A stretch of DNA of 64,000 nt from a virus: IMG/VR virus record IMGVR_UViG_3300025853_000048, positions 1 through 64,000 of that record. The stretch is one strand, 5' to 3'. Made by a program: the position numbers and the translations under genes. This document shows, piece after piece, positions 3,675-55,379 of the stretch. The notes below the pieces were generated by a model. It searched no databases. It was not told the origin of the DNA and saw nothing but the letters and a program-made list of their open reading frames with translations. Numbering within the stretch: position 1 is the stretch's first letter; every line of letters begins with the position of its first letter.

Positions 3675-4337
3675 TTAGATGCTGGTTAAATCGATAGTCC
3701 GCACGATCTCTTTGCCCTGCTTGGATCGCCGCTTCCCGGATTTGGTCAACGGGTAGCACCTGGCCGATTGCTTTTCAGAGTTCAACGATTTGATTTCAAA
3801 ATCTTTGTCATTCACGGTGATCGTGTCGCCTACCTCGTAGAGTTCAGTCAGATCGGACTGTTCCTCAACTGCAGGTTCTTCAGCGGTGGTTTCCACTTCG
3901 GCAGGTGCTTCGACAACCTTTACATCAACCGGCTCCTCAACAATAACCAATTCAGGTTCAGGCTGGACTACCGGGGCAGTTGTTTCTACCGGGGCAGTGG
4001 CATTGCTCAATGACAGGAGTTCTTTTTCTACTGCCAGCATATCGGAGCTTTGAACCTCTTTTTTGACCACTTCCACTCGAGGCATTGGGTAGCTGATCAC
4101 CTTGCGGTGGAAATCCAGAAATTCCTCTACCAGGCGCTCCCATTTCTTGTTGGCTTCGCTTTTGGTGAAGGTCTTCTTGCCTCTCTGCTCCTGGAATACA
4201 TGACGACCTTTCAACGGCCCTTTATCCTGGCGAATGTATTGGTGGCAGATTACCGGGGGTTCGTATTTACCCATCTCTGGGAAAGCGATATAGAAATCGC
4301 AGTCGGAAAAGTTAGCATCATCATTTTCAGTACTCAT
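3675..4337 (-). CDS. hypothetical protein
   Basis: 220-aa ORF with a Glu/Pro/Val-rich linker, directly after the capsid gene. Confidence 0.65.
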   Translation of the reverse strand: MSTENDDANFSDCDFYIAFPEMGKYEPPVICHQYIRQDKGPLKGRHVFQEQRGKKTFTKSEANKKWERLVEEFLDFHRKVISYPMPRVEVVKKEVQSSDMLAVEKELLSLSNATAPVETTAPVVQPEPELVIVEEPVDVKVVEAPAEVETTAEEPAVEEQSDLTELYEVGDTITVNDKDFEIKSLNSEKQSARCYPLTKSGKRRSKQGKEIVRTIDLTSI

Positions 4338-10081: not shown

Positions 10082-12289
10082 TTAGGCAGTTAGTTCGGGG
10101 CGATTCGCCTGAGGCAGCAACATTTCCGGATCTCCGGTCATCATGTCGCCAGCCTGCCCTGGAATGGGTTGATCGGGGATCGGTTGAAAGTACTGTTCCG
10201 GATCGGGAATCTGGTAGGTGTTGAACAAGCGTTCAAAAAGTGGGGCAATCACGGCTTGGGCATGGGCAGGGTAAGCCATGAAGCGTTCCCAGGCGTCAAT
10301 TGCGGCCTGGGTCTGCACCAATTCCTGCTCACCCATGTAGGTCGTCAGGTTGATCTTGATGGTATATTCGAAGTCCCGGATGCTGGCCGGTTCCATCTCT
10401 TCGAACTGGTTGGAGCCATCCTTGAAAAAGGTAAATGTTTCTTTCTGGGAGAGGTTTGCAACGGTGATTTTGGCAAACATCTCGGTGGTATGCTGGAACC
10501 CGGGAATCAGGTGATCAATCAACGGCCCGATCATCTCTTGACCGGCCCTCTCGATATGTCGGATGCCTGTCGCCAGCTTGGCCGTATCCAGTCCTGCCAT
10601 TTGGGAATCATTGGCATTGGCCACTCCTCCCAGAGATTGCGCGTATTGCTGGGCGATTTCGACTATCTTCAGCAGGTAGTCATGCTTGATGTCGGTCAGG
10701 TAAACCCGCTGAATCACATCTTCGGCCTTGTAATCCTTTTTGAGAGTGTAGGTGTGATTATCGTTGAATCTCAGGAACGGGTTGTTATCTCCCTCGTACA
10801 CGCCATCTGGATTGAAGAAATCCACCCCACCTGAATCAGACTGGCTTTTGTTCATGCGATTGATGGACAAATCAATCAGTTCCTGCAATCCCCAAAACAA
10901 CCCAACTTGTGAACAGCCGTACCAACGGTTTTCCACAGGGTTGACTCGGATCACGCGGAATGGCCGGCGACCATCTGCCGTTACCCTGGCCGTGTAATCG
11001 TAGTAAATGGGACGGTTGTTGGTCAGGTCCATGACCAGCATGATTTCTTTTTCCTCGCCCGTGCCGAATACATCAAGACGCATGTAAAATTCGCCAACTT
11101 TGACCACGGGTGAACCCTGGTTTAGATCGGTTTCGTCCATCCTGTCGCCAGCCATGCCAGAGTGCGCCTTGGGCGTGCCGTCCGCTCCTGCCATGCTCTC
11201 CACCATCTCCAGGAAACGAGGATCGGAAATTGCTGCCCCTTCCGTGCCTCGCATGTGGCGTTGCACCAGGTCGGCAACGGCTTCGTCATAGACATGCAGC
11301 ACGCAATTGGCGGTGTCTACTGACTTGGCCTGCAGTGGGCAAAAGAAATTCTGGTAAGGAACCAGATCCACGTCAGCGCCCTCATAATGAACTTTCTGGC
11401 GTCGAACCAGTTGTGTTTCCCAAACCAAGTCCTCTGGTTTGAGAGTCATCGGCGACCGCTCGAGAACATAGACAATCTCGGAATTATCCGCAATTGGTTG
11501 TAAATCAGCGTTTAACAGGTCGCCGGTTTCAGGATCGTGTAAGGCAACCCAGATATCGTCATCAAATATGTAATCGCCATCCTCGGCAGTTAGCGGTTCC
11601 CGGGTAGCAGGATCCACGGCAACAGTAAATTCATCCTCATAGATATCATCGTCTACTTTATAGGTTCCTTTCAAGACTGCCTCACCATTGATAAAAATGC
11701 GGTCGATCGCCTGACCAAGCACGGTTTTGAGTTCGCTCTGCTCCGCTTTGAACTTCAGAAAGTGTTCCTGCAGTTCGGCAATCTCCTGACTCACCTGGCG
11801 CCGCGGGCGAGCCGAAAACCACGGATCGGTCTTGAGGAAATAGTTGTGGACCCGGGAAATCTGGTTTTGAACCTGTGTTCTCGCCGTGGGCAGGGTTATG
11901 TTTTGACTTTCGTAGATGTTCGGAGAGGGGTAGGCGTCTGACCGCCACTCCACATCCTGGTTGAAAAGTTTATCGTAAAGTTCGCGCTTAAGCATCCACT
12001 CCTCATTGAGCGCCATGAACCGACCAGGATCACTGGGAACCTGACCGAGACTGTGATAGCCCATCTCGTTCTCCATCTCCTTCTGACGGTCCAGAGCGAA
12101 CGCAATCATGAGTTGTTCCTGATGGCGATTCAGGCGCAGTGCCGGTCCCTGGAAAACCACCTCCGGGCGTTCGCTTTCGGGTAGACCGCGGGGATAGGCG
12201 CCCTCGTTAATCGGGAAATCATCTTCTCCAGGAAGGTGGGGTTTGCGGGCGCGTTCAAGAAATTCAGAAAGGTGCGAGGACGAGGACAT
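10082..12289 (-). CDS. portal protein (P22/podovirus-like)
   Basis: 735 aa; motifs DPWFSARP, FINGEAVLK, VPYQNFFCP, RRPF...NRWYGCS...LQELID, ATGI; upstream of scaffold and capsid. Confidence 0.8.
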   Translation of the reverse strand: MSSSSHLSEFLERARKPHLPGEDDFPINEGAYPRGLPESERPEVVFQGPALRLNRHQEQLMIAFALDRQKEMENEMGYHSLGQVPSDPGRFMALNEEWMLKRELYDKLFNQDVEWRSDAYPSPNIYESQNITLPTARTQVQNQISRVHNYFLKTDPWFSARPRRQVSQEIAELQEHFLKFKAEQSELKTVLGQAIDRIFINGEAVLKGTYKVDDDIYEDEFTVAVDPATREPLTAEDGDYIFDDDIWVALHDPETGDLLNADLQPIADNSEIVYVLERSPMTLKPEDLVWETQLVRRQKVHYEGADVDLVPYQNFFCPLQAKSVDTANCVLHVYDEAVADLVQRHMRGTEGAAISDPRFLEMVESMAGADGTPKAHSGMAGDRMDETDLNQGSPVVKVGEFYMRLDVFGTGEEKEIMLVMDLTNNRPIYYDYTARVTADGRRPFRVIRVNPVENRWYGCSQVGLFWGLQELIDLSINRMNKSQSDSGGVDFFNPDGVYEGDNNPFLRFNDNHTYTLKKDYKAEDVIQRVYLTDIKHDYLLKIVEIAQQYAQSLGGVANANDSQMAGLDTAKLATGIRHIERAGQEMIGPLIDHLIPGFQHTTEMFAKITVANLSQKETFTFFKDGSNQFEEMEPASIRDFEYTIKINLTTYMGEQELVQTQAAIDAWERFMAYPAHAQAVIAPLFERLFNTYQIPDPEQYFQPIPDQPIPGQAGDMMTGDPEMLLPQANRPELTA

Positions 12290-12371
12290 TCGGAATGAAT
12301 GACGTACAATGACATCGCCCGCAATCTGGCGGATACTTTTGGAAGGGTTTGAGAGGCTACACAGTTTAGGC

Positions 12372-12457
12372 TTGACTCCCTACCTGTCGAATTTGTTATA
12401 ATTGAGTTGGAGCGAAGGTCGCCTGATGCTCCCTCGCTCAACATTAACTGTTATGCC
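12372..12457 (+). promoter_or_regulatory. array A anchor site: sigma70-like promoter, L-box hairpin and R' core (attI-like candidate)
   Basis: TTGACT(12372)-N19-TATAAT(12397) with TGn extension, then a GTTGGAGCG...CGCTCAAC hairpin and GTTATGCC at 12450. Homologous to 47790-47877. Confidence 0.65.
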
Positions 12458-13272
12458 AAGAAAAGATCGAGTTGAGATAACTCCTTTTCGATTCTCTCTT
12501 TAGCAGTTTTAAAGTGTTCCGGGTCTTTTTCGATGCCGATGGCTTTCCGGCCCGTTCGGATTGCCGCGATAATGGTTGATCCACTTCCCATGAATGGGTC
12601 AAGCACGGTTTCCCCTTTTTTCGTATAAGTTTCAGTCATGTATCCGAGCAACGGAACTGGTTTTTCGGTCGGGTGATTCCTGCATTTAGGATCAACCACA
12701 TTATATTTCAGCACCGTCGAAGGCAGTCGCGTTGTATCTCCCCCTTTGTAATTTCGTGTATTCGTCCCGTGGTAGAGAACACCATCACTGCTGCCTCTCG
12801 CACTTTGCGTCGGGTTGTGCCCCCTCGTTCTCTGCGGGTAATATGACCCCGGATTTTGATAGAACACACAAATCTCTTCATGCTTCCTCAACGGTTGCCG
12901 TTTCCCGTGCAGGAAATTAGTAGCCATATTCTTTTCCCAAACCCACCAATATTTAAAGCGACCCTCTTGAGACATCACCAACCTGTGAGTAAACGGTTGA
13001 GAAGCAAACATGACGATTGGGAGTGTTTCGCCTCCAACTTTCCATAGGTCATCCCACGCACTCAGCCAATCTGTGTCATCCCAATCACAGGCGGTCGTGC
13101 CATACGGAGGATCAGTGATCACAGCATCTATACCGTTGAGATGCGGCAGGATTTCCAGACAGTCACCGTGATACAACTCCACACCATCAAAGGCATAACA
13201 AGGCGCAGCAGGTAAGGCCGTACCCTCTTGAGTCGGAGGCTGTACCCTGTTTGATCCTTTGTCCTGCTTCAT
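12451..13272 (-). CDS. N4-cytosine/N6-adenine DNA methyltransferase (beta class), cassette A1
   Basis: GDCLEIL, ITDPPYG, HPTEKP, VLDPFMGSGST, IGIEKD. Confidence 0.9.
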   Translation of the reverse strand: MKQDKGSNRVQPPTQEGTALPAAPCYAFDGVELYHGDCLEILPHLNGIDAVITDPPYGTTACDWDDTDWLSAWDDLWKVGGETLPIVMFASQPFTHRLVMSQEGRFKYWWVWEKNMATNFLHGKRQPLRKHEEICVFYQNPGSYYPQRTRGHNPTQSARGSSDGVLYHGTNTRNYKGGDTTRLPSTVLKYNVVDPKCRNHPTEKPVPLLGYMTETYTKKGETVLDPFMGSGSTIIAAIRTGRKAIGIEKDPEHFKTAKERIEKELSQLDLFLA

Positions 13273-13310
13273 TTGTTCCTCCCGGCCTACCTGTGCTCAA
13301 GCGTTATCTC
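13192..13310 (+). repeat. attC-like site A1
   Basis: GGCATAAC..GCAGCAGGTAAGGCCG...CGGCCTACCTGTGC..GTTATCTC, with two unpaired bases in the left arm. Confidence 0.85.
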
Positions 13311-14092
13311 TGAAATAATTCCTCCTGCACCTCATGGTGCGCCTTTGTTGGTTCGTTCAGCGGCAACACTTCCTGGAGCATCCTTTGAGCCGCTATCTCG
13401 CAGTATTTTTCCTGCATCTCGATTCCTACACATTTCACCCCGGCATCCTTACACGCTCGTAGGGTGGTTCCTGATCCCATCCACGGATCGAGGACGGTTT
13501 GCACGTCTCCAGCTTGCATTAGCGCCCACGCCATCACCGCGAGCGGTTTTTGCGTCGGGTGCCACCGGTCTTCGTTGCCTTTCCGCAACATCCCATGCCA
13601 TTGGTGCCGCTTCAACCTGACAGGACCATCAATATTAGTCCATGCGAGTTCAGCGTCCGCATAGTAATTTTTCCCGTTCTCCTTATCCCACACAAGCCAA
13701 CAACTTGTAACCGGAAGCGGGTAATAATTCCCGCCGAAAATAATTTGGGTTTTACATTTCTCCCTAGCTGTTCTCATGGTCAATTCATCAACAGGTTTCT
13801 CATCCCACTCATTACTCCCATAACTACCTCTAGGAGCTTTAGATTTACCGAACTGTTCTGCCTCTTGATCATCTCTTCGGCCTCGTCGAGCAAGTCCATA
13901 CGGAGGATCGCACAGCAGCAGATCGAACGGCCCCAGATGCGGCATGATCTTCCCGCAATCCCCGTGGTATATCGTCACGTAGTCGTCCGAATAGTAAGGA
14001 GATAACAAGTCGCAGCAGGTAAGGCCATTCAATAGGGTACAATCGTCCACTGTACCCTGTTGAGTCTGTCCTGTATCCTTTGTTTCCGTCAT
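13304..14092 (-). CDS. N4/N6 DNA methyltransferase (beta class), cassette A2
   Basis: YHGDC, LCDPPYG, HPTQKP, VLDPWMGSGTT. Confidence 0.9.
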   Translation of the reverse strand: MTETKDTGQTQQGTVDDCTLLNGLTCCDLLSPYYSDDYVTIYHGDCGKIMPHLGPFDLLLCDPPYGLARRGRRDDQEAEQFGKSKAPRGSYGSNEWDEKPVDELTMRTAREKCKTQIIFGGNYYPLPVTSCWLVWDKENGKNYYADAELAWTNIDGPVRLKRHQWHGMLRKGNEDRWHPTQKPLAVMAWALMQAGDVQTVLDPWMGSGTTLRACKDAGVKCVGIEMQEKYCEIAAQRMLQEVLPLNEPTKAHHEVQEELFQR

Positions 14093-14119
14093 GGCCTACC
14101 TGTGCTCAAGCGTTCTGCT
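13999..14119 (+). repeat. attC-like site A2
   Basis: GAGATAAC..GCAGCAGGTAAGGCCAT...ATGGCCTACCTGTGC..GTTCTGCT. Confidence 0.85.
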
Positions 14120-14360
14120 CGGAATAATTGAAGTCTTTCTCGTATTCTCGAAGGGCGAGCAACAGCCCCGTCGAAACATCTGCGATCCTCTGCGCCTCAC
14201 CCACTTCATTCCTCCGAATGCACAGATAGGCGCGGTGGTTGAGTTCGCGTAGGATTGCCCCGACTTCAGTAGGGTTGTAGATGTCATCCTCGGAAGCAGA
14301 ACAAGTCGTGGATGAACAAGGTTCATTCCTTCCTTCGTCAGTCATTTCACCTGTCATCAC
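14106..14360 (-). CDS. hypothetical protein, cassette A3 (paralogue of the N-terminus of 52533..52925)
   Basis: TEVGAILRELNHRAY...GEAQRIADV resembles ITVGQLLREIVHRCH...DRAKELAEI. Confidence 0.65.
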   Translation of the reverse strand: MMTGEMTDEGRNEPCSSTTCSASEDDIYNPTEVGAILRELNHRAYLCIRRNEVGEAQRIADVSTGLLLALREYEKDFNYSEQNA

Positions 14361-14374
14361 TCATACGTTCTCCC
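14295..14374 (+). repeat. attC-like site A3
   Basis: AGCAGAAC..GTGGATGA...TCATCAC..GTTCTCCC. Confidence 0.8.
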
Positions 14375-14391
14375 ATGGCCTGCTTGGCGTT

Positions 14392-14805
14392 CTACATAAA
14401 CTCGATCAAAGCTTCCCCCGATGATGTGGCGTGCTTCATGTGGATGTTGGTTCCGGAATCCAGGGCAAATATAGCCTCTGTGCCGTCACCACCACGGATC
14501 ACGGACCCGATCTGGTTTTCTGCCTCAGTCGGCGTTGTATCTGCAGCCATCCCGGTATCGCCGGGAGTTTCATCGATTGCTACAGTTATTTCGCCAGCCG
14601 ATTCGTTGGTGATTCGCACCTGATGCGCTCCGGATGGGATCGGAACTGTCAATTCAGTATCTGCCGAAGCGTCAAACGCCACCCGAATATGCTGGTTGAA
14701 AGTCTTGCGGAGATCGGGAACACCGCGGGTAAACTGGAAAGAGGTGTCGCCAAGCGTTTCATTGGACCGTGCTGTCCCGCCGACCATTTTAAGTTCGTTA
14801 CTCAT
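14392..14805 (-). CDS. hypothetical protein, possibly virion-associated
   Basis: 137-aa ORF with a beta-rich composition. Confidence 0.6.
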   Translation of the reverse strand: MSNELKMVGGTARSNETLGDTSFQFTRGVPDLRKTFNQHIRVAFDASADTELTVPIPSGAHQVRITNESAGEITVAIDETPGDTGMAADTTPTEAENQIGSVIRGGDGTEAIFALDSGTNIHMKHATSSGEALIEFM

Positions 14806-27100: not shown

Positions 27101-30100
27101 CGGTTTCCGGGAAGCCTGCGATTCGGTTGATTTTGGCGAAGTAGGTTTCTGGGCTTTGGTCTTGTCGTTCATCGTTAAATATATCCTCGGTTTGGGATGC
27201 GTCATCACGGTTTTTCTGTTCGCGTTGTGCGAACGTTAAATATTCCCGAAGCGTCTCATCGAACGGGAATTCGTTAGAACTCCGGTCTTTCTTCAGCTTC
27301 GTTGAAGTCACCAGGTCATCCAGTAACAGTTGACCGATCTCAGAGAGTGGTTCGCTGACCAGTTCGGCTTTACGGTTGGTCAGCCAGTCGGACAGGTTGC
27401 GGAAGTTGCCCTGCTCGACTGCGTGCATTCCCGACCGCAGGGAAAGGATCGCTTCGACCACATCGCCTGCCAGGGACAAATCATCGTCGAGTTTCGCCAG
27501 TTCCGGCGCTACCTTGGCAACTGCGGAGACGATGCGCTTGCCGCCGTCGCTCTCCAGTATAGCGGTAACATCAGCGGAGTCTTTCCCTGCCTTTTCCACT
27601 AGACGAGTCACAAATGCTGCCATGACTCGACGGGATGCTTCGGCCTGGTCAAATTCTCCCGATTGGGTCCGGGTGATTCCCCTGGCAGATTGTTCCAGTT
27701 TGGTGGCGACTGCCCGCAGAGAATCGGCGGTGAGTTGATTATTGACGTTGAACCGCAGCCCGGACAGGGTGCTGTAGCCGATGGCTTCGGCATCAAGTAA
27801 CGCCTGCTCGGAAACGGATTCGCCGAGTCCGCCCTGTTTCGGGTTGCTTTCGACCACGAAAGATCGTTGATCGCCACTGGTGAACTCAATCACTTCGCGG
27901 ATAAGGACCGGTTGTTTGACCCCGGCAAGATTAATGCCTTCTTCCTGCGCAAAATCGCGAACCGCAGTTTCGTAGGCCATGGCGTTGCCCCGTTCGTAGG
28001 CGAGGCGTATTCCGCTCGATCTTCCGTTTCCGGCGATAACGCTTCCGCCTGAAACAACCGGAGCGCCATCGTTGGCCTTGCGAGAATCTAGCAGGAAGTC
28101 GGGATCGATGGATGAAGCGATTCGCTCTATCTGCTCCATCGAAGAACGATTCCCGCTTCTCTGTCGGGTCTGATCAGCATTGATCTCTGCCTCGATCATC
28201 CCGTCTAAATCTGTGGCATCAACCACCCTGTAACGGAAAGTCGCCTTGGCCCCGTTCGGGGTTCCGGTTGAAATAGTGCCGTCAATATCGGCCACATCCG
28301 GGCTTTTCGCGCCATCTGCGGGGCTTTTCTGTCCGGTATTAGGTTTCCTGACAGTTACTGCCGGTTTCTTGTAGTTGATTGGTGTATAAACTGTTCGACC
28401 GGATTTGGTGCCCTTCTGAGCGTTGGAAAGATCAACGTCGTAACCTCTCCTTGAGAGTGCTTCGTAAACCCTGTAGGCAGGCTCCGAAACATAGTTGTCT
28501 GACATAACATCTTTCCCATCCTCATGCGCCTTGTCAATAATCGCCTGGTAAGCCTTAATTCCCAACTTCTTGCCCTGATGTATTCCTTGCAGGGTGGATT
28601 TATGGATTCTTACTTTACCTTCATACTCACCGGCAGTCACGTACCCGACTTCTACGTCTTTTTCATCCCGTATCGAAGCTCTAAAACCATCCTCAGAAAG
28701 TTTAATTGACCCTTCTTCCTCGAAAACGCTCTCGTCCAGGTCGAAGACTCCGGTGTTGCCGGGGTGCTTGCCTGCCTTCGCGGTCTTCTTCGATTTGGTT
28801 TGCGCGAATTCCTCCAACCGTTGCACTTGCTCTTCGGTGATCGGAGCCAGTTTATTTGGAGCATTAACGTCATCCCAATCAGCCTCCCGCTTCTGGCCTT
28901 TATCGACCATGAAGACCTTGGAAATGAAATCTTGCGCTTCCACCCCTTCTTTACCGATGCTCGCCTCGCTGTAGCCGAGCAACTCTTCAATCACTCTGTC
29001 TTTGTCATTGCGAACCGATACAACATCGCCAACTTGCGTCCTTCTCAGGGCGAACATGACTTCAGCAACCCGGGAAAAGAATGCGCCTTTTAGACCTTCA
29101 TCCTTGCTCGCTTCTTGATGGGAGAGATCTGCGATTCGTCCCGCTTCCTTCTGCAACTTCAAGCTTCCGGCGTAGGTTTCGATGGCTTGCTCTGCCAATG
29201 CAATAGGATCGGTTTTCTTCGCTGCGGTCTTCTTCTTGGGGGTTTGCACAGCAACCTCTGAGAGGTCCATTTCCACTATTTGCCCTATCAACTCCTTTGG
29301 CCCCGGCTCGACAATTGTTCCTGAGAAAATACCGTTACCCAAATCATTAGTGACCTCAACACTCCTGAAAATACTGCTACCGGTTGGGTCGTAATAAATA
29401 ACCTCACCTACGTTGGGGTATTTTGTGACACCTGGATGAGGTCCGGGGTGTCTTTTTGAATCTTCTGAAAGGTCTACTCCTGTTATGTTTACCAGGCGGT
29501 CTTTATAGGATTCTATCGCTGCCTCAACCTCGTAGATTGACAACCATCCACCCGTTTTTTTCAACAACTCAGATTTAGCCTTATCGGTCTTGAGTTCATT
29601 GTAGCGACTTGTAATACTGAAAAGATCACCAAGGCGTTTGCGGTGCGCAACTTCTGAAGCTGATTTGGGAAGTGCTTTTCTGGGGTTATCACTCCACAAT
29701 TCAAGTTTCTTGCCTGGGGCTGACTTTGCAAAAATAGCAGCGCCTTCCCCTAGACGTTTCTCTTCCGCATCTTCAAAGTCTTTGCCGGTTTCGCCTTTGA
29801 TTTCATTGATCTTATCCTGATAGGATTTACCATCCCTCCGTTCTTTTTCTTCCCAGAACTGAACGGCGTCTTCAATTCGTTGAGACTCAACTGGAAGAGC
29901 GTTGTACCGTTCACTTTCGGCGCTTATATCAGCAAGAAGTTTAGACTCAACATTATCAAGATAATCTTTCACCCCGACCCAGAAAAACAGATTCTTATTT
30001 GGGCGGACATTGGCACTTGATGAGAAATTACGAACTTTCTCTCTAACCATGTTAAGCATGGAATTCACCTTATCCAGATCCCTATTTAATCCTTCAACAT

Positions 30101-33100
30101 AATGAGATCCAACCCCCGTGGTTCTGGCAGTATTTTTCCATTCCGGTAATTGTTTCTCTGCGTATTCAACCCCCCTCTTCCATTGTTCATCTGACTGGCT
30201 ATGTTTATCCCATGCGATCAGTTTTGTGTTACCAGCTGAATCCGTGGTGCGTTTTGATTTGGTTAGCGTGTCAGGTTTCTCTTCAGCAACTTTCTTCTTA
30301 GCCTTCGGCTTCCGGGTTTCAGCTTTCGGGGGTTCCCCTTCCAGCGCCCTTTTCTGAGCTTCAAACTTCTTCCGGCCCTCCGCGGTCAACTCCTGAGTAC
30401 CATCTTTCTCGAACTTCTTCTTATAGATGATGCCGTTATTGGCCAGCACCTTGGCGCTGCCGGGGTGACCTTTCTTGCCTTCGCCGATGGCCATCATGGC
30501 GCGGACCTGGGCGGCATTTAAACCGTCTGGACGCTCGCTCTTGCCGGTCTTGGCGGCGTGGATGGAGTAGCCGGTTTTGAGAAGTTTCAGCTCATTACTC
30601 ACCACTTCCATGGTTTCCTGGCTGCGGTCACCGAGGATGAATTTCTCCAGTGCCGGATTGATCATCAACCCGTCCGCTTCACCTTCCTTGGAACGTTGCA
30701 ACTGGCTAGGCGTATCGGCGTCGCCCATATCAACCACCAGGATACGCAGATCCAGAAGTTGGTCGTATTCCTCCGGTGACAAATCCTCGCCGTTGATCCA
30801 TTTTTTCAGCTCTTCAGCGTGGCGGATATCGACTGTTTTCTCAGTGGTGTCCTGTGGATCCTGGGCGAGCGGTTTGCCCTGCCAGTCGAGCGGGAGTAAA
30901 GATCCCCGTTCTTCGTTCTTGGTTCCTGGTTCTTCGTTGGTTGCTGGCCCCATCGGGATGTTGCGACCGTCCACCTTGCGGTGGAATTCCTCGTACTGGC
31001 GCAACTCTTTGTCGCTTGGCTTTTTAGCTCTGCGACCAATGGCGAATAGGTGCATATCGTCTACTCCCAGCTTGAGAGCAAACTCCCGCTCACTATCCGA
31101 AATGTAGGATTGTTGATCGTGTAGAGTCAGGTTGCCTTCGCCTCTTTGGTAAATGCGATACAAACCGTCTTCGACTTCCCGTTTCGAGAATCCCTGATCC
31201 ATCACGATGGGGACCAGTTCTCCCAAGGAAACCATGCTGCCGGGGTTGTCTGATAGCCGCGTTGCCACCTTGGCAATTTCAGCGTCCACGGCGGGGCGGT
31301 TCGGGTAATCGGCTATTCCGTTTTCAGTCGGGAAGGATTCTTGAGTTTCTCCGCCCTCATAAACCGCGAATCCCTCATCGATCAGGTATTGCTTGTCAGC
31401 TTCATCGAGCGATTCCTCGCCCTCATGGACTAGGCGTTGCAATACCTCGTCGTCCTTGCCCTTGAGTAGGCCGGTGTAGACGTTGATCGGTTTGAACTTC
31501 TGGCGCAATTCATCGAGATCTTTATCGACAACCGAGTAGGTGCCCTGCGATGGGTCGTAGTTGTCATCGATATCGCTCTTGCTGAATCCGGCTTGCTCGG
31601 CCTGCTCGATCAGCTCCAGCTTCATTTCGCTGGTCTTGGCCTTGGCGTATTTCCGGCGCAACCCGGCCAGTTTCTTGCGGCGCGGAGCCTCTTGCTTGTC
31701 CCGCTCGATGGCTTCGGCGTGTCTTTCTGCCCGTTGCTGGTCCTCGGACTTGGCCTTCTTCTGTCGTTCGCGGGTGGTTGCTGCCCGGGCCTTGTCGCGC
31801 TCTGCTACGTATTCCTTGGAGTTGCCAGCTTTGATATCGTTCACGCTGCGGCGCTCCATGTGGTCGCCAGATCCAGCAATGATGATCTCATCGAAGATGT
31901 CCCGGATTTCGTTGGGCAACTCGCCCTTCAGGTGAGCATACAGGTTCCTGGCAATCTCTTTGACCACCCGGAACGCTTCCTTAATCTTGTCGCTGGCTCC
32001 CTGGGGGAATTTACCTCTGCGGAAATATTCCTCGGCGTGTTCCGCGAATTTCTCTTCTGACTCCGGACTCCAATCGTCGGTTGCTTCACCGTAAAATTCA
32101 TTGAGTCGATTACCGATTTCAGTTCCCTTAAGCAGTTCACGGTCGAGGTGAATGATTTCGTGAAGCAAGGTGATGGCGTCGGCCTTGCCCTCGATCAGGC
32201 CGATGAGGTTATCGGCGCGACGGTAGAAGCCCTTGATTGCGCGGCCCTTGCCGCCACGCTGAAGCAGGATCGCGTCTTCCGGTGCGATGTTTTCGCTCGA
32301 ATACGGCGCGATGGCGGCGCGTTGCTCGGCGGTGAGGTTCGCCCGGGACTGGACGTCGCGGGCCTCGATCTCGCCTGCGGTGCGACGGTAATCCCTGTCT
32401 GGTGCAAAAATTCTCTTCTCACGTTCTTTTTCGTATTTCTCTTTTTCGTGTTGATACCATTCCCGCGCCTCATCGATGTCTGACATCATTTCCGTCAGTT
32501 CCAATTCACGTGGATCTATCTCCCTGTCTGCTAACCGAGAATACTTCTTCGCCGCCAGTTGTGCATTTTCAGCATCCAGTTGTGCCGCCGATCTGCGCTT
32601 GTATTTCTCAGCTAGTTCTTCCGCGTGCTTGATCCGCAGTTCGTGCCGTTTACGAAGTTCTTCTACCGGTGTTGTTCCGTTCTCTTCGGCAGATTCAAAA
32701 TATTTGGTCACCATGAACTTTCGACTGACTTCTTTGTTCAATCGGTCGAAATCTTCATCAGCCATTTGCATACCTTGGCGATGCTCTAGCGGAGAACTCC
32801 CTCTTGCGAATCCTTCTCTATGCTGAATAGCGTGTTGAATTTCGTGCAGGAGAGAACTCAACCCCCTTCCTTGTGCGCCTATCGAAATTCTCTCTTTTCC
32901 TCCAATGTTAATATAAACCGCATCTATTCCGTCTTTCAACGAAACTGGAATCTTGCCAATCTCAGGATATGCCTCAAACAAAGCCGTATGATCCAGCAAA
33001 TCGCGCAACTCAACTTCTTCAGTGTCGCCGTTTTTCAACAGATCTAGAACCTCATCGTAAATCTTCGCACCCTCGTCAGGAATCTCCCAACGCATCTTGC

Positions 33101-39100: not shown

Positions 39101-42100
39101 GGTAGCGGCGGAAATGAGGCGATGAGGTGCGCCCGTTAAACTTGCCCTCGATAATTGCACGGGTTGCTTCGGAAACCTTCTTTGCCGGGGTCAACCCATC
39201 GAATCCATTGTATTCCTTGAGCATCAGCCCGTGCAAAACTTTGTCGTACTGCGGGGAACGCGGGTCGAACGCCTTGGATGCGGCATCGATCAGCTCCGGA
39301 TTATCGGCGGCAAACACCCGTTGCGCGGCGTGAACTCCCTCGTGGAAGATGGTTCGCTCGATCTGGGCAACGGAGCGACGCTTGTTCTGGTCTTCGAAGA
39401 TCACAATCGCCGGATTGCCGTCGCTATCAGTGACGGTTACGCCAGTTCCCTTGCGGGATAGGCTCCTACCGAGCAATGCTTCGCCGTGCGCCTTGTTCTG
39501 CGCCACGATAACGCGTACCCCGCTGGCCTTCAGGGTGTCCAGCATCGCCGACTGGTTGCCGATCGCCCGGTTGATCTTTTTGATACTGGATAAGGTTTCA
39601 TCCTTTTGTGGGGCAGGAGTCTTCGGCTTCTTGGCTTTCGGTTTCTTTTTTGCAGGTGCCGCTACCTGGTCAGCCCTGACCAAGGTGATATCGTAATCAT
39701 AGGGATTGATCGTTTCATCCCCCGGAATCTGGGGGGCTACCTTGCGCAACGCTTCTTTGGAAGAAGAGGCGATGGAGGTGGGCACAGTAAACGTTTGATC
39801 ACCGGTGAGAGATGAGACACTCCAGTAATCACCACCCCCATCGCTGCTTAGAGATTCACCACCGGTCGAAACTTCTTCCGGTGATGCTATTGATGAGTTT
39901 GCGTCATCAGCATCTTGTTCCAAAGTAGAGTCCGCAACTGTTTTTTCTTCTTCCTCGGTCGATTTAGGGTCAGTTTCAGGTTCTGCTTCAACTTCTTGCT
40001 CTGCGGGAGCGGAAAACTTGGCCTTGGCCGTCTCGTAATCCATCGTGAGGAACGCTTCTGCCGCTTCAGGGAATATTGCCTTTGCCTGATCATGCGCTTC
40101 TTCGGTGATAACTGGGACCGGTCCTTCCGGGCTATCAACTATTTCATAAACTGGTGAGTTCAGGTGTCCAACGGGAGACTTGAGTGCAGGATGGTCAAGG
40201 TTCACCGCTTTGTTGTCTGCCCCTATCCTGACCGCTGCCGCTGCCTGAAGGGTGGCTATGTAGTTAGCCATCGCCCTTTTGTAGGCTCCCGCATTACCCT
40301 CCGGGTCAGCTTCCTCTGCCTGCTTTGCCTCAGTTGCCGCGTCTTTGGCCGCGTTGATAGCGCCTTCAATCTCGGCGGAAAAGCCTGCCGCCATTTTGAC
40401 GCTCTGGCGAATCTGGGTCAACCGGTCAGCTTCGATTTCCTCGATCCTCTCCACAACCGCCTTTTTGCCTTCGATGTCGTCCTCTGCCTTGCCCTGGTAT
40501 TCCTGCAAGAGTTTATCGATCTCTGCTTCTGCGTCCCGGGAACCGTAAGAAGCAATATCGCCAACCAGTCTTTGCGCGGCTTCGATTTCCTCCTGCTGGA
40601 TAAATTCATCGGGTTCCACATACTCATTGATCCGGTCAAACACATCTCCCGGGTCGCCCGACAATTCGCTTTTAAGCTGCTCTCCGGAAAGCATGGCCTG
40701 CTTGACCATTTCAGCAATGCTTCTTGCTCGCTCATTGATTTGTTGTTCACGAATTTGCGGAGCATCCCCGATGATGCTGCTAATCCCGGACAATCCAGCA
40801 GCCCCGGAACCAATGGCACCACCAATCCCGGCACCCATCCATACCCCGTCGATGACTTGATCCCAATTAACTCTTCCGTCATCCATGAATCCCTGGATGG
40901 CCTCTTCTTTTCCTTCATCAAAGCCTTCCTCGATTATTTCAGGGAAACCATGCTTGGCGAATCCTTCGGCTGCTGAATCCCAAAACTCCGGTGACCGAAC
41001 ATAGTTAAGAAATTTGGCATCCACATCCGGGTTGTTTTTCGCCCATTTGGCAAATGCTGGCATATCCAAGTCGCCAGCCTTGCGCTTGAATTTATTCAGG
41101 ACGGCCAGTTCACCAGTCGCTCCAAATGCGCCAACAATGGCCGATGAAGTCAACCCTTGTACTACTCCAACCCCAACCGCATGATCCAGCGCATCCGCGT
41201 GGGACATCCCTTTTTCAATGCCCTGCTTGTAGCTTCGACTCACGGCAATACCGAAACTTGCCGATCCCGCTTCACCCATTGCTGTCGCAAAACCAGACCT
41301 GGCTGCCCATTTCGAAACTTGTTTCTCAATCTGTTCTTCGGCGGCATCTTTGCCTATCTTCTTGGTCAGTTCGCTGCCTATCTTTTTCTTGAGTACTTTT
41401 TTCCCAACGGAACTTACCGCTGTGGCTGCACCCAATGAAAAAATCATGGAGGGGAGTTCTGAAAACACTTCTGAGACAAATTCGTTGGCCACTTGTGATA
41501 CACCACCTCCGATTGCCCCTGACTGGACAAGTGCAGAAAATTCTTCACTTGTTTCGTTTGCTCCCGTTAACCACTCCTCTTTGCCTGTGATACCCCCGGC
41601 AACCCCTCTCAGGATCATTTCGAATTCGCCCACAGCACTGCCAGCAGCAGCGAGAACCCATTGGATGGCTTTCTCTGAAAGGTTCTGCTGATCCAGGTAG
41701 GCTTCAATCAATTCTGCCTCGCTCTCGTGCGGGTTATTCTGCTCGAATTTAAGGAAACCTGTCAACCCTATGGGAACATCTGTGTTGACGCCCCGTACGG
41801 AGATTTTGCGTAAAGCTTCTGCCACCTTGGGTGCTGAAATGTTTCGAGCGTGTTCAAATTCTGCCTTTGCTTGCTCTATCTTCTCAGGGTCATCAGTAAG
41901 CTTGGATAACTCGGCATCTAGGGCAGGGGTATCGAAAAGGTTTAACGATCCCACATTTAGTTGCAAATTTCCCGATTGCAGTTCCCGGACCTTCTGCCCC
42001 GGCAACCATCCGGAATGCCTTTCTTGCAAATCGCGAACGATGCGATCTTTCTGAGTTCTGGGGATGTTGTATTTCTCAGCTAGTTCTTCCGCGTGCTTGA

Positions 42101-47789: not shown

Positions 47790-47877
47790 TTGACTGGGTG
47801 GGTTGCGGTTCTGTTAAAATGATGTTGGAGCGCGAGGTCGCCGAGGGCTCCCCGGCTCAACTAATTACTGTTCTCCT
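47790..47877 (+). promoter_or_regulatory. array B anchor site: sigma70-like promoter, L-box hairpin and R' core (attI-like candidate)
   Basis: TTGACT(47790)-N19-TAAAAT(47815) with TGn extension, GTTGGAGC...GCTCAAC, and GTTCTCCT at 47870. Confidence 0.65.
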
Positions 47878-48739
47878 GAGATAACTGCTCCTTAAGTTCC
47901 ATCAGTTCATCAATGATTTCATCCTGGCGCCAAGGGTCAATTTTTTCCCATTCCATTTTCGTGTCCAAGTCCTCTCTACCACAGGAATCCACGCGCATCA
48001 TGCAGTTCAGAATCTCTGCCGCCACCTGCGGCACTATCGCGTTTCCGAGTCCTCTAAGTCGGTCCAATGCTCGGGGTACCCCATCAAAATCTCGACAGAA
48101 ACAGGATCCCATTTCAATTTGGCGTATTCCGTTCCCCTCAATTTGTTTTGGCTCCCACCTGCTTCCTGGACTGTTCCGTTCCATTTTTCGCTTCCCGCGC
48201 ACGGCGTGGGCAAGAATCCAGACTCTATCTCTCCGATGTTGCGCCCCGATGGCACAAGCCGGAATAATGATTGCCTGCGCGGAGTAGCCAATCCCCTCCA
48301 AGTCAGAAAGCACTTCATCGAGGCCCATCGTGATGTGACCAGCAACATTTTCACACAATGCCCAACGGGGTCGGAGGTGTCCAAGAATTCGCAATAGTTC
48401 CGGCCAGAGGTGACGGTCATCTTCCGCGCCTCTTCGCTTCCCGGCGCTACTGAAAGGTTGGCAAGGGTATCCTCCGGTAATAAGCTCAATTGTTCCATAG
48501 TTATCAGGGTCTAAAGTTTTTACGTTGTCGTGGATTGGTACGCCGGGGAAGTTCTTCGCCAGCACCTTTTGCGCCCATGGGTCTACCTCGCAGAACCCCA
48601 CGGTTTCGATTCCTCCGACCATGCGAGCTGCCAGGGCGAAACCACCGATACCGGAGAACAGGTCGAGATGCCGCAAAGGAGAACAAGACGCAGCAGGTAA
48701 TGCTTCATCCCGTTGGTCTGTTCGCATACCTGTGCTCAT
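47861..48739 (-). CDS. C5-cytosine DNA methyltransferase, cassette B1
   Basis: LDLFSGIGG, GGYPCQPFS, ENV, QHRRDR, LGNAIVP. Confidence 0.92.
   Translation of the reverse strand: MSTGMRTDQRDEALPAASCSPLRHLDLFSGIGGFALAARMVGGIETVGFCEVDPWAQKVLAKNFPGVPIHDNVKTLDPDNYGTIELITGGYPCQPFSSAGKRRGAEDDRHLWPELLRILGHLRPRWALCENVAGHITMGLDEVLSDLEGIGYSAQAIIIPACAIGAQHRRDRVWILAHAVRGKRKMERNSPGSRWEPKQIEGNGIRQIEMGSCFCRDFDGVPRALDRLRGLGNAIVPQVAAEILNCMMRVDSCGREDLDTKMEWEKIDPWRQDEIIDELMELKEQLSQENSN
48034..48498 (-). CDS. alternative-frame ORF overlapping the C5-MTase
   Basis: 154-aa ATG-started ORF with MEQLSLLPED...EARKMTVTSG...LPTP...VEILMGYP..WTDL, a pattern I recall from overprinted frames of phage C5-MTases. Confidence 0.5.
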   Translation of the reverse strand: MEQLSLLPEDTLANLSVAPGSEEARKMTVTSGRNYCEFLDTSDPVGHCVKMLLVTSRWASMKCFLTWRGLATPRRQSLFRLVPSGRNIGEIESGFLPTPCAGSEKWNGTVQEAGGSQNKLRGTEYAKLKWDPVSVEILMGYPEHWTDLEDSETR

Positions 48740-48749
48740 ACGTTCTGCT
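48677..48749 (+). repeat. attC-like site B1
   Basis: AGGAGAAC..GCAGCAGGTAATGC...GCATACCTGTGC..GTTCTGCT. Confidence 0.85.
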
Positions 48750-48811
48750 AGTAAATCCCCATCATCATCTCATCCTCTCCTCCAGCACTTTCCACGAAGG
48801 AAATAGGGGCA

Positions 48812-49147
48812 TTAGGATTCCACTTTTCCGCTTTCTCTTGCTCTGATCCATCCGTCTTCCCAGACGTTGGCGATGATATTTTCGGCGTCTCCTTCTCCGA
48901 GTCCGTATTCGAGGAGGATGTTTCTGATTCTGTGGTAGTATTCATTGTCTGTAAATCCGAGCCAGTCGCGACCCCAAGGGGATCCTGTGCAATCTGTTCC
49001 CGAGAAGTCTATCTTGATATTGATGTCCACAACCCCGTCAGCAGAACAAGACGCATCAGCCAATGACTGTTCTTTAGGTTTTTTATCGTCTGATTCCGTT
49101 GGTTTATCGTTTTGATCACTCATCGTTTTTTGTGGTTGCGCCGTCAT
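48812..49147 (-). CDS. hypothetical protein, cassette B2
   Basis: 111-aa ORF starting inside attC B2. Confidence 0.6.
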   Translation of the reverse strand: MTAQPQKTMSDQNDKPTESDDKKPKEQSLADASCSADGVVDINIKIDFSGTDCTGSPWGRDWLGFTDNEYYHRIRNILLEYGLGEGDAENIIANVWEDGWIRARESGKVES

Positions 49148-49169
49148 GGCTGTGCTTCAGCGTTCTCTC
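49040..49169 (+). repeat. attC-like site B2
   Basis: AGCAGAAC..GCATCAGCCAATGAC...GTCATGGCTGTGC..GTTCTCTC. Confidence 0.85.
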
Positions 49170-49170
49170 T

Positions 49171-49995
49171 TTAAAATAACTCCGGTTGAGGTGGGGCGTG
49201 GTGCTCGGCTTTCGGCTCCGAGAAGTCGAGGACTTCCTGAAGCATCCTTTGGGCTGCTATCTCGCAGTATTTCTCCTGCATCTCGACCCCCACGCATTTA
49301 ACCCCGGCATCTTTACAGGCTCTTAACGTGGTCCCTGATCCCATCCACGGATCGAGAGCAGTTTTTACATCTCCCGCCTGTTGGAGTGCCCACACCATTA
49401 CGTCCAGAGGTTTCTGGGTTGGATGGTCCCGCTTTTCCGATCCTTTTCGAGCCATTCCATTCCACAGATGTTTTTTTATTCGCATCGCTCCATTGAGATT
49501 GTTCCACGCCATCTCACCATCAGCGAAGTTTCCATTCATTTCCTTATCCCAGACTAGCGGCCCTTTGCACGGCGGCAGATCGTAGTAATTCCCCCCGAAT
49601 ATGATTTGTTTTTCGCAGATATTCCGCGCCAGTTCCATTACCCATCTTGGGACTGGTTCTTTATCCCAGTCGGTCAGTTCGTAGGTTCGCTTCGCAACTC
49701 TCCGATGTCCGCTCCCTACTATATTCCCGCTTGCTTTGTGCATCGCTTTATCGGCTCCGATACCATAAGGTGGATCACACAGAAGCAGATCAAACCTCCC
49801 TAGATGCGGCATTATCTTCCCACAGTCGCCGTGATAGATCGTCACATAATCGTCCTGGTAGTAGGGACTGTACAGTGTACAGTCATCCGCTGTACACTGT
49901 ACAGTCGGCTCGTCTGGAGAGAACAAGACGGTGGAGCCAATGCTATCCTCTATGTCGTTTTTCGTGGTTTTCATCGTCGTTCGTTCGGATCGCAT
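49171..49995 (-). CDS. N4/N6 DNA methyltransferase (beta class), cassette B3; close paralogue of A2
   Basis: LCDPPYG, HPTQKP, LDPWMGSGTT; long stretches identical to 13304..14092. Confidence 0.9.
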   Translation of the reverse strand: MRSERTTMKTTKNDIEDSIGSTVLFSPDEPTVQCTADDCTLYSPYYQDDYVTIYHGDCGKIMPHLGRFDLLLCDPPYGIGADKAMHKASGNIVGSGHRRVAKRTYELTDWDKEPVPRWVMELARNICEKQIIFGGNYYDLPPCKGPLVWDKEMNGNFADGEMAWNNLNGAMRIKKHLWNGMARKGSEKRDHPTQKPLDVMVWALQQAGDVKTALDPWMGSGTTLRACKDAGVKCVGVEMQEKYCEIAAQRMLQEVLDFSEPKAEHHAPPQPELF

Positions 49996-50017
49996 GGCTC
50001 ACCTTTAGCGTTCTAAT
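49917..50017 (+). repeat. attC-like site B3
   Basis: GAGAGAAC..GGTGGAGCCAATGC...GCATGGCTCACC..GTTCTAAT. Confidence 0.85.
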
Positions 50018-51195: not shown

Positions 51196-51489
51196 TCATT
51201 TTCGGCCCTCTTCAGCAACCCGGACTGCGTTGCGGACCAGGCTGGTGAATATTGACAACTGGGTCTTGGGGGGTGCGCTCCTGTGTCCCCGTTCCCGTGC
51301 CATGTGGAAATAGCCGCAGAATTCGCATTTGTAGACAATCAGCGGGGTTCCGGATTTCTTCTCTGATTGCGCTTTAGCGGTCAGTGCGAGTTTGCGCCTT
51401 TTGTAAGCGTGCTTGCCGCATTTTCGGGGTAGTTTGGCGACCTTTTCGTGTGCTCTGCGTTGCCTAGGTTTCTGTGTTCTTTTGCTCAT
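51196..51489 (-). CDS. small basic Cys/His protein
   Basis: CGK..Y...A...YKCEFCGYFHM. Confidence 0.6.
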   Translation of the reverse strand: MSKRTQKPRQRRAHEKVAKLPRKCGKHAYKRRKLALTAKAQSEKKSGTPLIVYKCEFCGYFHMARERGHRSAPPKTQLSIFTSLVRNAVRVAEEGRK

Positions 51490-52531
51490 CTTTTTCGCTC
51501 AATACGTTGGTTTCAAAAGCCCCGCTCATATTGGTGTGGTTGTAGGTCTGGTTCGTTATATCCAAACCGCTATGCCCTAGTTTGTAACTGATCTCCTCCA
51601 GCGTCATGCCTTTCTGATAGGCGTGCGTGGCGACCGAGTGACGCAACATGTGCGGTGTGCATTTCGGCAACTGGTGTGCCTTGCAAAGTTTGTTCAGAAA
51701 ATCATTTACCCAGTGCCGGGAGTAGCCCACCCATTGCCCATGTACCTTGTGCGAGAAGATCGGTTCAGTCTCATCGTCGCGGCCTTTGTCCTGGATGTGC
51801 TTTTCGATCCTGACAGCGATCCTGTACGGGATCTCCACTCTGCGTGTCTTCTTGCCCTTGGTGTTCTCTGATCGAAAAATGAAATAATGCTGCCCTGTGG
51901 CACCGTCTCTGCGGAAGTCCTGCGCCTGGAGTGATATGAATTCCGTTACCCTGGCACCAACTGAGTAGAGCGTGTAGAACGCCAACCATCGGATCTGATC
52001 GGCTGTTCCTGCCGTGCCTTTGTCCTTGCGTTCTTCGAGCACGTCCAGCCATCGCTCCACCTCCGGTTCACTCAGAACCTTGTCTTCGATGATTCTATCG
52101 GGCCGCTGCAGTTCGATTTCAACTCCGACGTTATACTGTAGATAACCCAGTCTTTGCGCGTATGACATCAGGGATTTAATCGGATCAATGCGAGTGCGGA
52201 TCGATGCGGGTTTGAGCGTCTGTCCGTTGGGTAACGTTTCCGCTTTGACCTGATCGACGTATTCAGTCATGTCTGCCAGGGTGACGGTTCGTAATGGTTT
52301 TTCCCAGCCGATAAAATCTCGGAACTTGCGGATATTGAGCGCGTAAGTCTCCTGCGTGTTCTCCGATGGACGGGAGCGGATAAACATTTCGATTAGGTGA
52401 TCGTCGTCCCGAGCTCCGGACATATCCGGTTTCGGCTGGTGCGGGTGGTCGATCGGGGTGCCGACTGCATACTGCTTCCGCTCTGCGATGTCGCCAGGTT
52501 CGGGGTCCAGGATTTCGAATTCTTCAGGCAT
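51464..52531 (-). CDS. tyrosine recombinase (XerC/D-like)
   Basis: SAM-like N-domain (SENTQETY); catalytic R (GARVTE), K (TKGKKTR), HxxR (HMLRH), H (LGH), Y (QTYNH). No IntI-specific insert visible. Likely start MPEEF at 52531. Confidence 0.9.
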   Translation of the reverse strand: MPEEFEILDPEPGDIAERKQYAVGTPIDHPHQPKPDMSGARDDDHLIEMFIRSRPSENTQETYALNIRKFRDFIGWEKPLRTVTLADMTEYVDQVKAETLPNGQTLKPASIRTRIDPIKSLMSYAQRLGYLQYNVGVEIELQRPDRIIEDKVLSEPEVERWLDVLEERKDKGTAGTADQIRWLAFYTLYSVGARVTEFISLQAQDFRRDGATGQHYFIFRSENTKGKKTRRVEIPYRIAVRIEKHIQDKGRDDETEPIFSHKVHGQWVGYSRHWVNDFLNKLCKAHQLPKCTPHMLRHSVATHAYQKGMTLEEISYKLGHSGLDITNQTYNHTNMSGAFETNVLSEKDEQKNTET

Positions 52532-52532
52532 T

Positions 52533-54132: not shown

Positions 54133-54160
54133 ACTCAACATAAGTCGGGTTTTGTTAAGT
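54133..54160 (-). repeat. dif-like site D1
   Basis: Minus strand ACTTAACAAAA-CCCGAC-TTATGTTGAGT (11-6-11). Confidence 0.55.
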
Positions 54161-54164
54161 TTTT

Positions 54165-55351: not shown

Positions 55352-55379
55352 GTTCAACACAAGTCTGCTTTTGTTAAGT
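55352..55379 (-). repeat. dif-like site D2
   Basis: Minus strand ACTTAACAAAA-GCAGAC-TTGTGTTGAAC. Confidence 0.5.

Follow-up and report, generated by a model that had tools for sequence, protein, structure and literature searches.

Probable integron-type cassette arrays with reversed genes in a phage genome

How might a phage gain, lose and reorder accessory genes at fixed borders? The question is raised by a row of imperfect hairpins in the IMG/VR virus record IMGVR_UViG_3300025853_000048, a linear record of 89,449 nucleotides (nt) with a CheckV completeness of 86%; the window analysed here is bases 1-64000 of that record. A first-pass annotation, made from the letters alone, had interpreted three hairpins at 12450-14374 as attC sites of a phage-borne integron-type array (array A), with cassettes inserted as circles and opposite-strand open reading frames (ORFs), each beginning inside its own attC. 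Each testable point of that overall reading held. A second array of the same kind, array B, occupies 47870-50017 of the window and adds three sites and three further 8/8 pairs of complementary cassette ends. We consider it very probable that arrays A and B are real integron-type cassette arrays in a phage, whose cassettes were inserted as circles and whose genes are reversed. The phage status of the DNA rests on its IMG/VR virus record and an SU10-type portal gene, and the public runs that hold the record are labelled freshwater metagenome in 21 of 22 rows and marine in one, with no RNA run listed among them.

Throughout, L-numbers denote related contigs or loci (L093 is Polaribacter phage P12002L), G000 is the studied 89,449-nt record and G001-G003 are related viral records; L033 1-3200 comes from G001, and L088/L048 from G003. 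MTase1 and MTase2 are the genes of cassettes A1 and A2. Coordinates are collected in Table 1.

Structure and covariation of the attC-type sites

The three sites of array A lie on the + strand at the positions first claimed for them, each running from AAC to GTT. Folded as minus-strand DNA, all six sites in the window form an R stem of 5-6 bp, unpaired spacers, an L stem of about 13 bp and a large loop; in attC A1 the order is R'' GGCATAAC, a 5-nt spacer, L'' with two bulged bases, the loop, L', a 6-nt spacer and R' GTTATCTC. On the bottom strand of all six, the two bulged bases of the L stem sit on the 3' arm only, and every attC-type site from our structural scan has spacers of 5 nt on the left and 6 nt on the right. 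Among 12 aligned sites the bulges occupy columns 17 and 24 of the alignment, on either side of a 6-bp stem. The far bulge (column 24) is an invariant A on the top strand, or T on the bottom strand (12/12 sites), and the near bulge, usually a G on the bottom strand, is C or A here. In the introduction of PMC5027507, attC bottom strands are described as having AAC in R', spacers of 5-6 nt, bulges only on the '' arm, a 6-bp stem between these and a conserved T at the far bulge; except at the near bulge, the window sites agree with that description. Folding with paired R and L boxes had been proposed as a check, and it bore out the attC architecture, with covariation in support.

This covariation is extensive. 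The 12-site alignment was drawn from the window and related metagenome contigs; 93.1% of its cells pair and 12/18 pairs change on both sides, values reached by none of 500 shuffles, and sliding the partner by 1-3 columns lowers pairing to 25-41%. Searched with a covariance model derived from the alignment, the window yields the six sites and no others, each on the + strand, and 269,677 nt of chance-matched loci yield none. With 64 distinct sites, the figures are 13/13 L-stem pairs with changes on both sides and 96.5% paired cells (slid controls, 31.6-39.9%), in an alignment that leans toward the structure in having been collected by and fitted to the covariance model. The AAC/GTT pairs are invariant in 62/62 scored sites. 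G-U or U-G pairs fill only 7/1139 cells of the 64-site alignment, and this near-absence of wobble pairs favours a constraint on DNA over one on RNA alone. The conserved arms recur within the window as a 22-nt right arm present twice and a 23-nt left arm present three times (at most 3 mismatches), with 0 expected from 100 shuffles. A loose regular-expression scan for AAC...GTT pairs proved too noisy to be useful.

Cassette borders, exchange and gene polarity

The first 8 bp of each window cassette complement the left end of its own attC in 6/6 cassettes, including the two that start at the anchors, the putative attI-type heads of the arrays discussed below. In array A, GTTATGCC at 12450 complements GGCATAAC at 13192, GTTATCTC at 13303 complements GAGATAAC at 13999, and GTTCTGCT at 14112 complements AGCAGAAC at 14295. 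These three pairs had been called exact, which they are, and reading of the sequence shows that the complementarity ends at 8 bp in each. When R' of site n is compared with R'' of site n+1, the complement is 8/8 in 31/43 adjacent pairs and 7/8 in 5 more; the two ends of the same site reach 8/8 in 2/57 cases and unrelated pairs in 1.6% of 2807. The count omits L018, L019 and L024, which hold single or partial sites, and the control drops pairs between arrays that share cassettes.

Cassette-precise gain or loss in relatives between the G and TT of the GTT triplet (G/TT) was a test set beforehand, and such events are present in two comparisons, array B with L026 and L038 with L039. In L026 the anchor is joined directly to a 306-nt cassette (...ACTG/TTCTGCT), and relative to this contig the C5-methyltransferase cassette of array B is inserted exactly between G and TT, at a junction that shares only GTTCT. 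Between the viral contigs L038 and L039, which are nearly identical, a single 396-nt cassette is gained or lost at G/TT and another cassette has a different position, and in both comparisons the junctions share only 5-6 nt. In run X8, from another sample, two contigs depart right after the A2 GTT at 14114 and continue into a different cassette; here and for run X12 we compared assembled Logan contigs, among which no excised circle was seen, though contigs cannot display circle junctions, depth or expression. Insertion as circles at G/TT, as first proposed, is thus upheld by own-end complementarity that is general and by indels that are precise. A crossover at the left AAC, which would make the unit an attC plus the body to its right, was ruled out: the array B insert relative to L026 consists of a body and its right-hand attC, and arrays end in a full attC.

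Cassettes 92-98% identical to those of the window are found in other orders and positions in related contigs. The 750-nt MTase1 body is present over its full length in L026, as cassette five, and in L012, as cassette two, with different left neighbours, and a 219-nt body that is identical in L012 and L026 has the same right-hand attC and different left-hand attCs. The A2 body is 75-91% identical in L024, L025 and L019, where its right-hand neighbours differ. Within the MTase2 body, off the attC borders, run X8 also shows joints at 13558-13721 and 13573-13896 with 88% likeness; these probably derive from paralogous or related methyltransferases.

In the canonical cassette a promoterless gene lies on the top strand and is read from attI and the Pc promoter toward attC. 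The + strand is the attC top strand of our arrays by the side of the bulges and, independently, by a head that holds an anchor and no attC and a tail that holds a full attC. None of the six window cassettes has its ORF on this strand: all six ORFs lie on the bottom strand, with starts in the loop or at or beside the inner end of L'. Thus the MTase1 ATG lies in the loop of attC A1 after GGGAGG, and the MTase2 ATG abuts L' of attC A2. The minus-strand ORFs of array A had been said to begin within the hairpins and to be translated through them, and the leaders ALPAAPCYA, GLTCCDLLS and PCSSTTCSA are indeed found in their translations. Their stops fall at or just inside the neighbouring R', as had also been claimed. 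The stop of MTase1 (12451-12453, a TAA that overlaps the crossover TTA) and that of MTase2 (13304-13306, a TAA within R' of A1) lie in an R' box, and that of the small ORF (14106-14108) lies in the neighbour's spacer. More generally, the stop codon of a cassette gene falls within the cassette's own R box or slightly beyond, in the spacer of the neighbour, and in most cases the upstream stop comes 14-47 nt before the next start. Both larger ORFs match Pfam N6_N4_Mtase, in agreement with the annotated cargo of two DNA methyltransferases; the 84-aa ORF has no family in Pfam, NCBIfam or PHROGs.

The same polarity prevails in relatives. Across 36 cassettes from ten arrays (R match of at least 7), the longest ORF is on the bottom strand in 30 and starts in the loop of its own attC in 25, by the crude measure of the longest ORF from its first start codon. 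At loci with methyltransferase homologues, 58/60 model matches are on the strand opposite to the methyltransferase. The claim of opposite-strand ORFs that start within their own attC holds for all six window ORFs and for the majority of the 36 cassettes counted.

This arrangement raises the possibility that the hairpins are RNA elements of the minus-strand mRNA, serving translational coupling or RNase III-type processing, in DNA that is not mobile. Every cassette gene has its ribosome-binding site and start codon enclosed by the stem, upstream stops are close to the next start, and the mRNA has the bottom-strand sequence and could take up the same fold. The scarcity of wobble pairs is nevertheless unlike that of RNA helices, and a search of 12200-14600 against Rfam matched no family. 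Such an element would not predict complementary cassette ends some 250-850 nt apart, precise indels or reordering. We regard it as extremely unlikely that RNA elements are the whole explanation, although an RNA role may coexist with mobility.

Anchors, integrases and competing explanations

Each array begins at an anchor. Anchor A comprises a conserved hairpin (GTTGGAGCG...GCTCAAC) and then ATTAACTG/TT, with the crossover G at 12450. The L026 anchor is 98% identical to anchor B over 65 nt, and the L026 array lies elsewhere in the genome. Anchors A and B differ at two stem positions, each compensated on the opposite arm when the alignment is read. In IntI-bearing contigs the intI-proximal junction is a conserved ...AATT[AC]ACTG/TT beside the intI start codon, and the last ~10 nt of both window anchors equal this junction, a match on which we read anchors A and B as attI-type sites.

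On the top strand, the anchors (12372-12402, 47790-47819 and L026 ~4040-4062) also show TTGAC[TC], 18-19 nt and TATAAT or TAAAAT, preceded by TG in both window copies. This promoter-like motif would point into the array, antisense to the cargo; it was not flagged by a consensus promoter scan, which allowed spacers of 16-18 nt only.

G002 and G003 encode a 321-aa integrase at a distance of some 1.7 kb from their arrays, and it lies likewise at the anchor end in L089-L091. It is divergent from the attC top strand and co-oriented with the cassette genes, which read toward it; L089-L091 hold 14 sites, all on the strand opposite to intI and 13 of these upstream of the gene. Among NCBIfam families the integrase is closest to TIGR02249, integron integrase, and its best solved relative is IntI4 (2a3v; E 1.4e-32), with a match that spans the IntI-specific stretch. 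There are 342 metagenomic relatives at E<=1e-20, the best 120 of which are 70-100% identical; where the source gives them a name, it is XerD. A complete integron has an IntI with an extra domain of ~35 residues near patch III and an adjoining attI. This combination is found in G002/G003 and L089-L091, at a score below the NCBIfam cut-off, and not in the record studied here, whose arrays, with three sites each and no IntI, are clusters of attC sites lacking integron-integrases (CALINs; at least two attC sites, no IntI nearby). In G003, the cassette nearest attI/intI (L088/L048 280-1134) encodes a 284-aa protein with Cys-rich motifs.

Several observations weigh against integron-type arrays. At the level of single sites, folding energies are mostly ordinary, with 55, 1, 19, 14, 41 and 13 of 200 shuffles folding as well as the six sites, so that the case lies in covariation and in the cassette geometry between sites. 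The fold of attC A3 is non-canonical (z -1.36); the strict structural scan missed this site, which apparently needs three bulged bases. The R' boxes in the window (GTTATGC, GTTATCT, GTTCTGC, GTTCTCC and GTTCTCT) depart from the consensus GTTRRRY and agree with it in GTT alone; some relatives (L033) carry GTTAGGC, and R-box sequence outside the triplet is described as not essential (PMC5027507). Among adjacent pairs, 12/43 fall short of 8/8, some probably through missed sites. On the MTase1 body stand two alternative attC cores, alike for 21 nt and then divergent inside L''; L019, L024 and run X8 contain a chimeric half-site; and the A2 arm appears as an in-frame 27-nt insert relative to the MTase2 paralogue. 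As to the enzyme, the absence of IntI that had been reported for the window extends to the whole 89,449-nt record, whose only two tyrosine recombinases are both Xer-like. G001, which is complete (terminal repeats, CheckV 100%), has a 9-site array and no tyrosine recombinase, so arrays can persist without a resident enzyme. The 321-aa integrase of relatives scores below the NCBIfam cut-off (194 versus 265 bits). No bacterial genome with a window attC arm was found in a search of exact matches in one genome per species.

Some of these points suggest that the hairpins could be conserved intergenic repeats, with genes shuffled by homologous recombination between arms of ~20 nt and no site-specific recombinase involved, much as with the promoter/stem-loop repeats of T4-type phages. 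The arms are long and near-identical, the two cores on the MTase1 body part company inside L'', a loose contig end in run X12 falls inside L'' as well (at 13212), half-sites can be chimeric, and the L012 array opens, next to backbone DNA, with a near-identical copy of the A2 core. Shuffling between repeats leaves unexplained, however, the 8-bp complement of own ends (31/43 against 1.6%), junctions that share GTTCT only, one-sided bulges at a fixed 6-bp spacing, and IntI and attI beside the arrays of relatives. As a full account it is very improbable; exchange within the conserved arms probably happens besides the G/TT events, in addition to site-specific recombination and not instead of it.

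The arrays might also be fossils, assembled in an IntI-bearing ancestor or a bacterial integron and now fixed as operon genes. The lack of IntI in the record and in the complete G001 fits this view, as do the divergent R' boxes and the decay seen in the chimeric sites and in a solitary half-site of the window. Yet related contigs hold the 92-98% identical cassettes in different orders and positions, the branch points of contigs from other samples fall exactly at GTT, and the 8-bp complement and the bulges are intact in 6/6 window cassettes, which suggests continuing selection. We therefore find a purely fossil state rather doubtful.

If the sites are active, the phage's own Xer-like recombinase at 51464-52585, rather than IntI, could work them. 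It is the sole well-scoring tyrosine recombinase of the record and close to array B, and, according to the introduction of PMC5027507, XerC/XerD alone among tyrosine recombinases, apart from integron integrases, are known to act on single- as well as double-stranded substrates. Its gene sits at the distal end of the array, however, not at the anchor as intI does in relatives, and its product is without the ~26-residue stretch present in IntI. IMG/VR queries with this recombinase and with the portal found no close relatives, and G001 keeps its array without any tyrosine recombinase. Taken together, these points make the Xer-like enzyme a clearly unlikely agent. Near its gene, at distances of 1.5-6 kb, a ~30-nt repeat (family D13) is present three times at gene junctions (54135-54164, 55354-55383 and 58318-58347), and these repeats could be its substrates.

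For integron-type arrays we propose the following mechanism. Cassettes would most likely have entered one by one as circles at the attI-type anchor, through an IntI-type tyrosine recombinase acting on the folded bottom strand and subsequent replication, as in bacterial integrons. The recombinase may be supplied in trans by the host or a co-infecting relative, or be encoded in the unassembled 14% of the record; failing that, the arrays would now be reshuffled by other routes only. Since relatives encode their own IntI, a phage enzyme in trans or in the missing 14% is as likely a source as a host enzyme. Each gene would take its ribosome-binding site and start codon from the attC loop or the inner end of L', and its first ~10-30 codons from the attC itself (L'', spacer and R''). 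With the start inside attC, each cassette would bring its own translation start and slot into a leftward phage operon that runs toward the anchor and, in IntI-bearing relatives, probably reads on into intI. In the mRNA, the L'/L'' stem may hide the start region until ribosomes completing the gene upstream, 14-47 nt distant, open it. The cargo methyltransferases would protect phage DNA from host restriction.

The minus strand carries all genes around array A: the portal, the two N6/N4 methyltransferases, the small ORF and then an ORF of 9,595 aa. This last ORF (15135-43922) makes up 45% of the window and holds internal repeats, among them families D4 and D12 with a common GCGGAGTAGAG and long direct repeats at 32547-32663 and 42067-42915. 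The array of G001 (L033 1-3200) consists of packed small ORFs of unknown function together with Dam-type and N6/N4 methyltransferases. The solitary half-site at 62608-62657 has no left arm and gives no covariance-model match; it comes after the stop of the ORF 62656-63486 and before a short ORF and an AT-rich stretch, and is perhaps what remains of a third array.

Three sequence searches brought no related arrays to light. A 16-nt right-arm pattern gave 5 chance matches in IMG/VR and no relatives; with a 19-nt left-arm pattern there were 3 matches in viruses and 31 in bacterial genomes, every one due to chance (0 covariance-model matches), so that this exact-match search of one genome per species identified no host integron with the attC type of the window; and tblastn of MTase1 against cultured phages returned 1657 records, all below 60% identity and useless for locating related arrays.

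Table 1. Features of arrays A and B and of their surroundings (positions in the window unless stated otherwise).
Feature	Positions	Strand	Remarks
Anchor A, putative attI-type head of array A	12372-12452	+	homologous to 47790-47872 and L026 4052-4116
Cassette A1 (body + attC)	12451-13303	+	from TT after the crossover to G of the next GTT; own-end complement 8/8
MTase1, N6/N4 DNA methyltransferase, 273 aa	12451-13272	-	PF01555, E 4.1e-27
attC A1	13192-13310	+ (top strand)	covariance model 105.7 bits; site was in the model seed
Cassette A2	13304-14112	+	own-end complement 8/8
MTase2, N6/N4 DNA methyltransferase, 262 aa	13304-14092	-	PF01555, E 1.9e-16; paralogue in array B
attC A2	13999-14119	+	fold z -3.35, covariation and covariance-model match
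Cassette A3	14113-14367	+	own-end complement 8/8
Small ORF, 84 aa from first start GTG	14106-14360	-	alternative ATG ~14345 after AGGTGA; TGA stop in A2 spacer
attC A3 (weakest site)	14295-14374	+	61.4 bits (seed member)
Anchor B, putative attI-type head of array B	47790-47872	+	ends AATTACTG/TT
Array B cassette 1	47871-48742	+	own-end complement 8/8
C5 methyltransferase, array B cassette 1	47861-48739	-	family match
Array B attC site 1	48677-48749	+	fold and covariance model
Array B cassette 2	48743-49162	+	own-end complement 8/8
ORF without assigned family, 111 aa, array B cassette 2	48812-49147	-	
Array B attC site 2	49040-49169	+	fold and covariance model
Array B cassette 3	49163-50010	+	own-end complement 8/8
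N6/N4 methyltransferase, MTase2 paralogue, array B cassette 3	49171-49995	-	family match
Array B attC site 3	49917-50017	+	fold and covariance model
SU10-type portal	10082-12289	-	family match
Xer-like tyrosine recombinase, 373 aa	51464-52585	-	1.4 kb past distal end of array B; not IntI
Second, weak tyrosine recombinase, 391 aa	81663-82220 of the record (outside the window)		PF00589, 29.7 bits
Solitary right half of attC (loop end, L', spacer, GTT)	62608-62657	+	92% identical to right half of B3

Relation to known systems and significance

The arrays share with bacterial integrons the AAC/GTT triplets, spacers of 5-6 nt, '' arm bulges 6 bp apart, a variable loop, crossover at G/TT, a cassette made of a body and its distal attC, an R'' that complements the first bases of the cassette, a putative head of attI type and, in phage relatives, an IntI-type enzyme beside attI. 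They differ in that the ORFs lie on the bottom strand and start inside their own attC, and in that the phage operon reads toward attI/intI and not away from a Pc promoter, making a new cassette the last gene. Further differences are the non-GTTRRRY R' boxes of the window, the phage carrier and the lack of intI in the record.

Phage-borne attC arrays with methyltransferase cargo are already in print. Qi et al (2023) found 3 complete integrons, one In0 and 17 CALINs among 10,705 phage genomes, and five cassette-borne DNA methyltransferases, including N6_N4_Mtase; IntI1 recombined 5/6 of the phage attC sites tested (PMC9892861, as far as the available sections go). The CALINs, of at least 2 sites each, came from virulent and temperate phages, the complete integrons resembled bacterial imports, and in phage TJE1 a hairpin with inverted GTT motifs stands at the array border (same sections). 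The attC clusters without IntI and the methyltransferase cargo of our record are alike to those CALINs, whereas antisense ORFs starting in attC, a shared attI-type anchor and a phage IntI clade do not figure in these sections of PMC9892861. The covariance model does not link the published CALINs searched to the window attC family: Tetrasphaera phage TJE1 yields no match, and Polaribacter phage P12002L yields a single one at E 0.63. Visual inspection of P12002L shows a canonical attC at 29960-30095, with the methyltransferase gp35 lying antisense to it and its ORF starting outside the attC; in the cassette at 29237-30060 this attC, TGCCTAAC...GTTAGCA, pairs with GTTAGGCA at the cassette start, undetected by the model. 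A further comparison is with engineered sites: synthetic attC sites can be written into almost any sequence, coding sequence included, with structural recognition (Nivina et al, 2020; PMC7439510), and the natural cassettes described here differ in using the embedded attC as N-terminal coding region and start.

Small accessory genes in plastic regions are also flanked by repeated structured intergenic elements, and shuffled, in the T4-type promoter/stem-loop cassettes. In those cassettes exchange proceeds through homologous recombination of the repeats, and an early promoter is present. The junctions of our arrays are instead site-specific at G/TT and share only 5-6 nt, and a consensus promoter scan (spacers of 16-18 nt) found no promoter inside any of the six attC sites.

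Our literature searches found no description of antisense cassettes that start in attC or of a phage IntI clade, a point on which the tables of the 17 CALINs in PMC9892861 may bear. Systematic gene reversal, the use of attC as start and leader, the shared attI-type anchor and the apparent phage IntI clade appear to be undescribed. We see about an even chance that these features define a separate class of integrons adapted to phages, one that has an IntI clade and an attI of its own, bottom-strand genes and exchangeable anti-defence stores, in which phages without IntI borrow the enzyme in trans. In such a class the hairpin would be at once a recombination site and a translation start with an N-terminal leader, and a captured cassette would become the coupled 3' gene of an operon that runs into intI.

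Bacteria are known to use integrons as a device for the stockpiling of genes, and many chromosomal cassettes have lately been shown to be anti-phage defences. Our data suggest that phages run this device in mirror image, with cassettes swapped between related phages at single-base precision and with the polarity reversed. This raises the question of how phages without IntI get their cassettes moved. If the reading is true, it would offer a concrete mechanism for the plasticity of phage accessory regions and a natural test of strand choice and expression logic in integrons, and candidate anti-defence genes could be harvested by sequence, each cassette being delimited by its attC. In a distinct phage class of integron, the arrays, with their methyltransferases and many small ORFs of unknown function, would be anti-defence stores that mirror the defence stores of bacterial chromosomal integrons.

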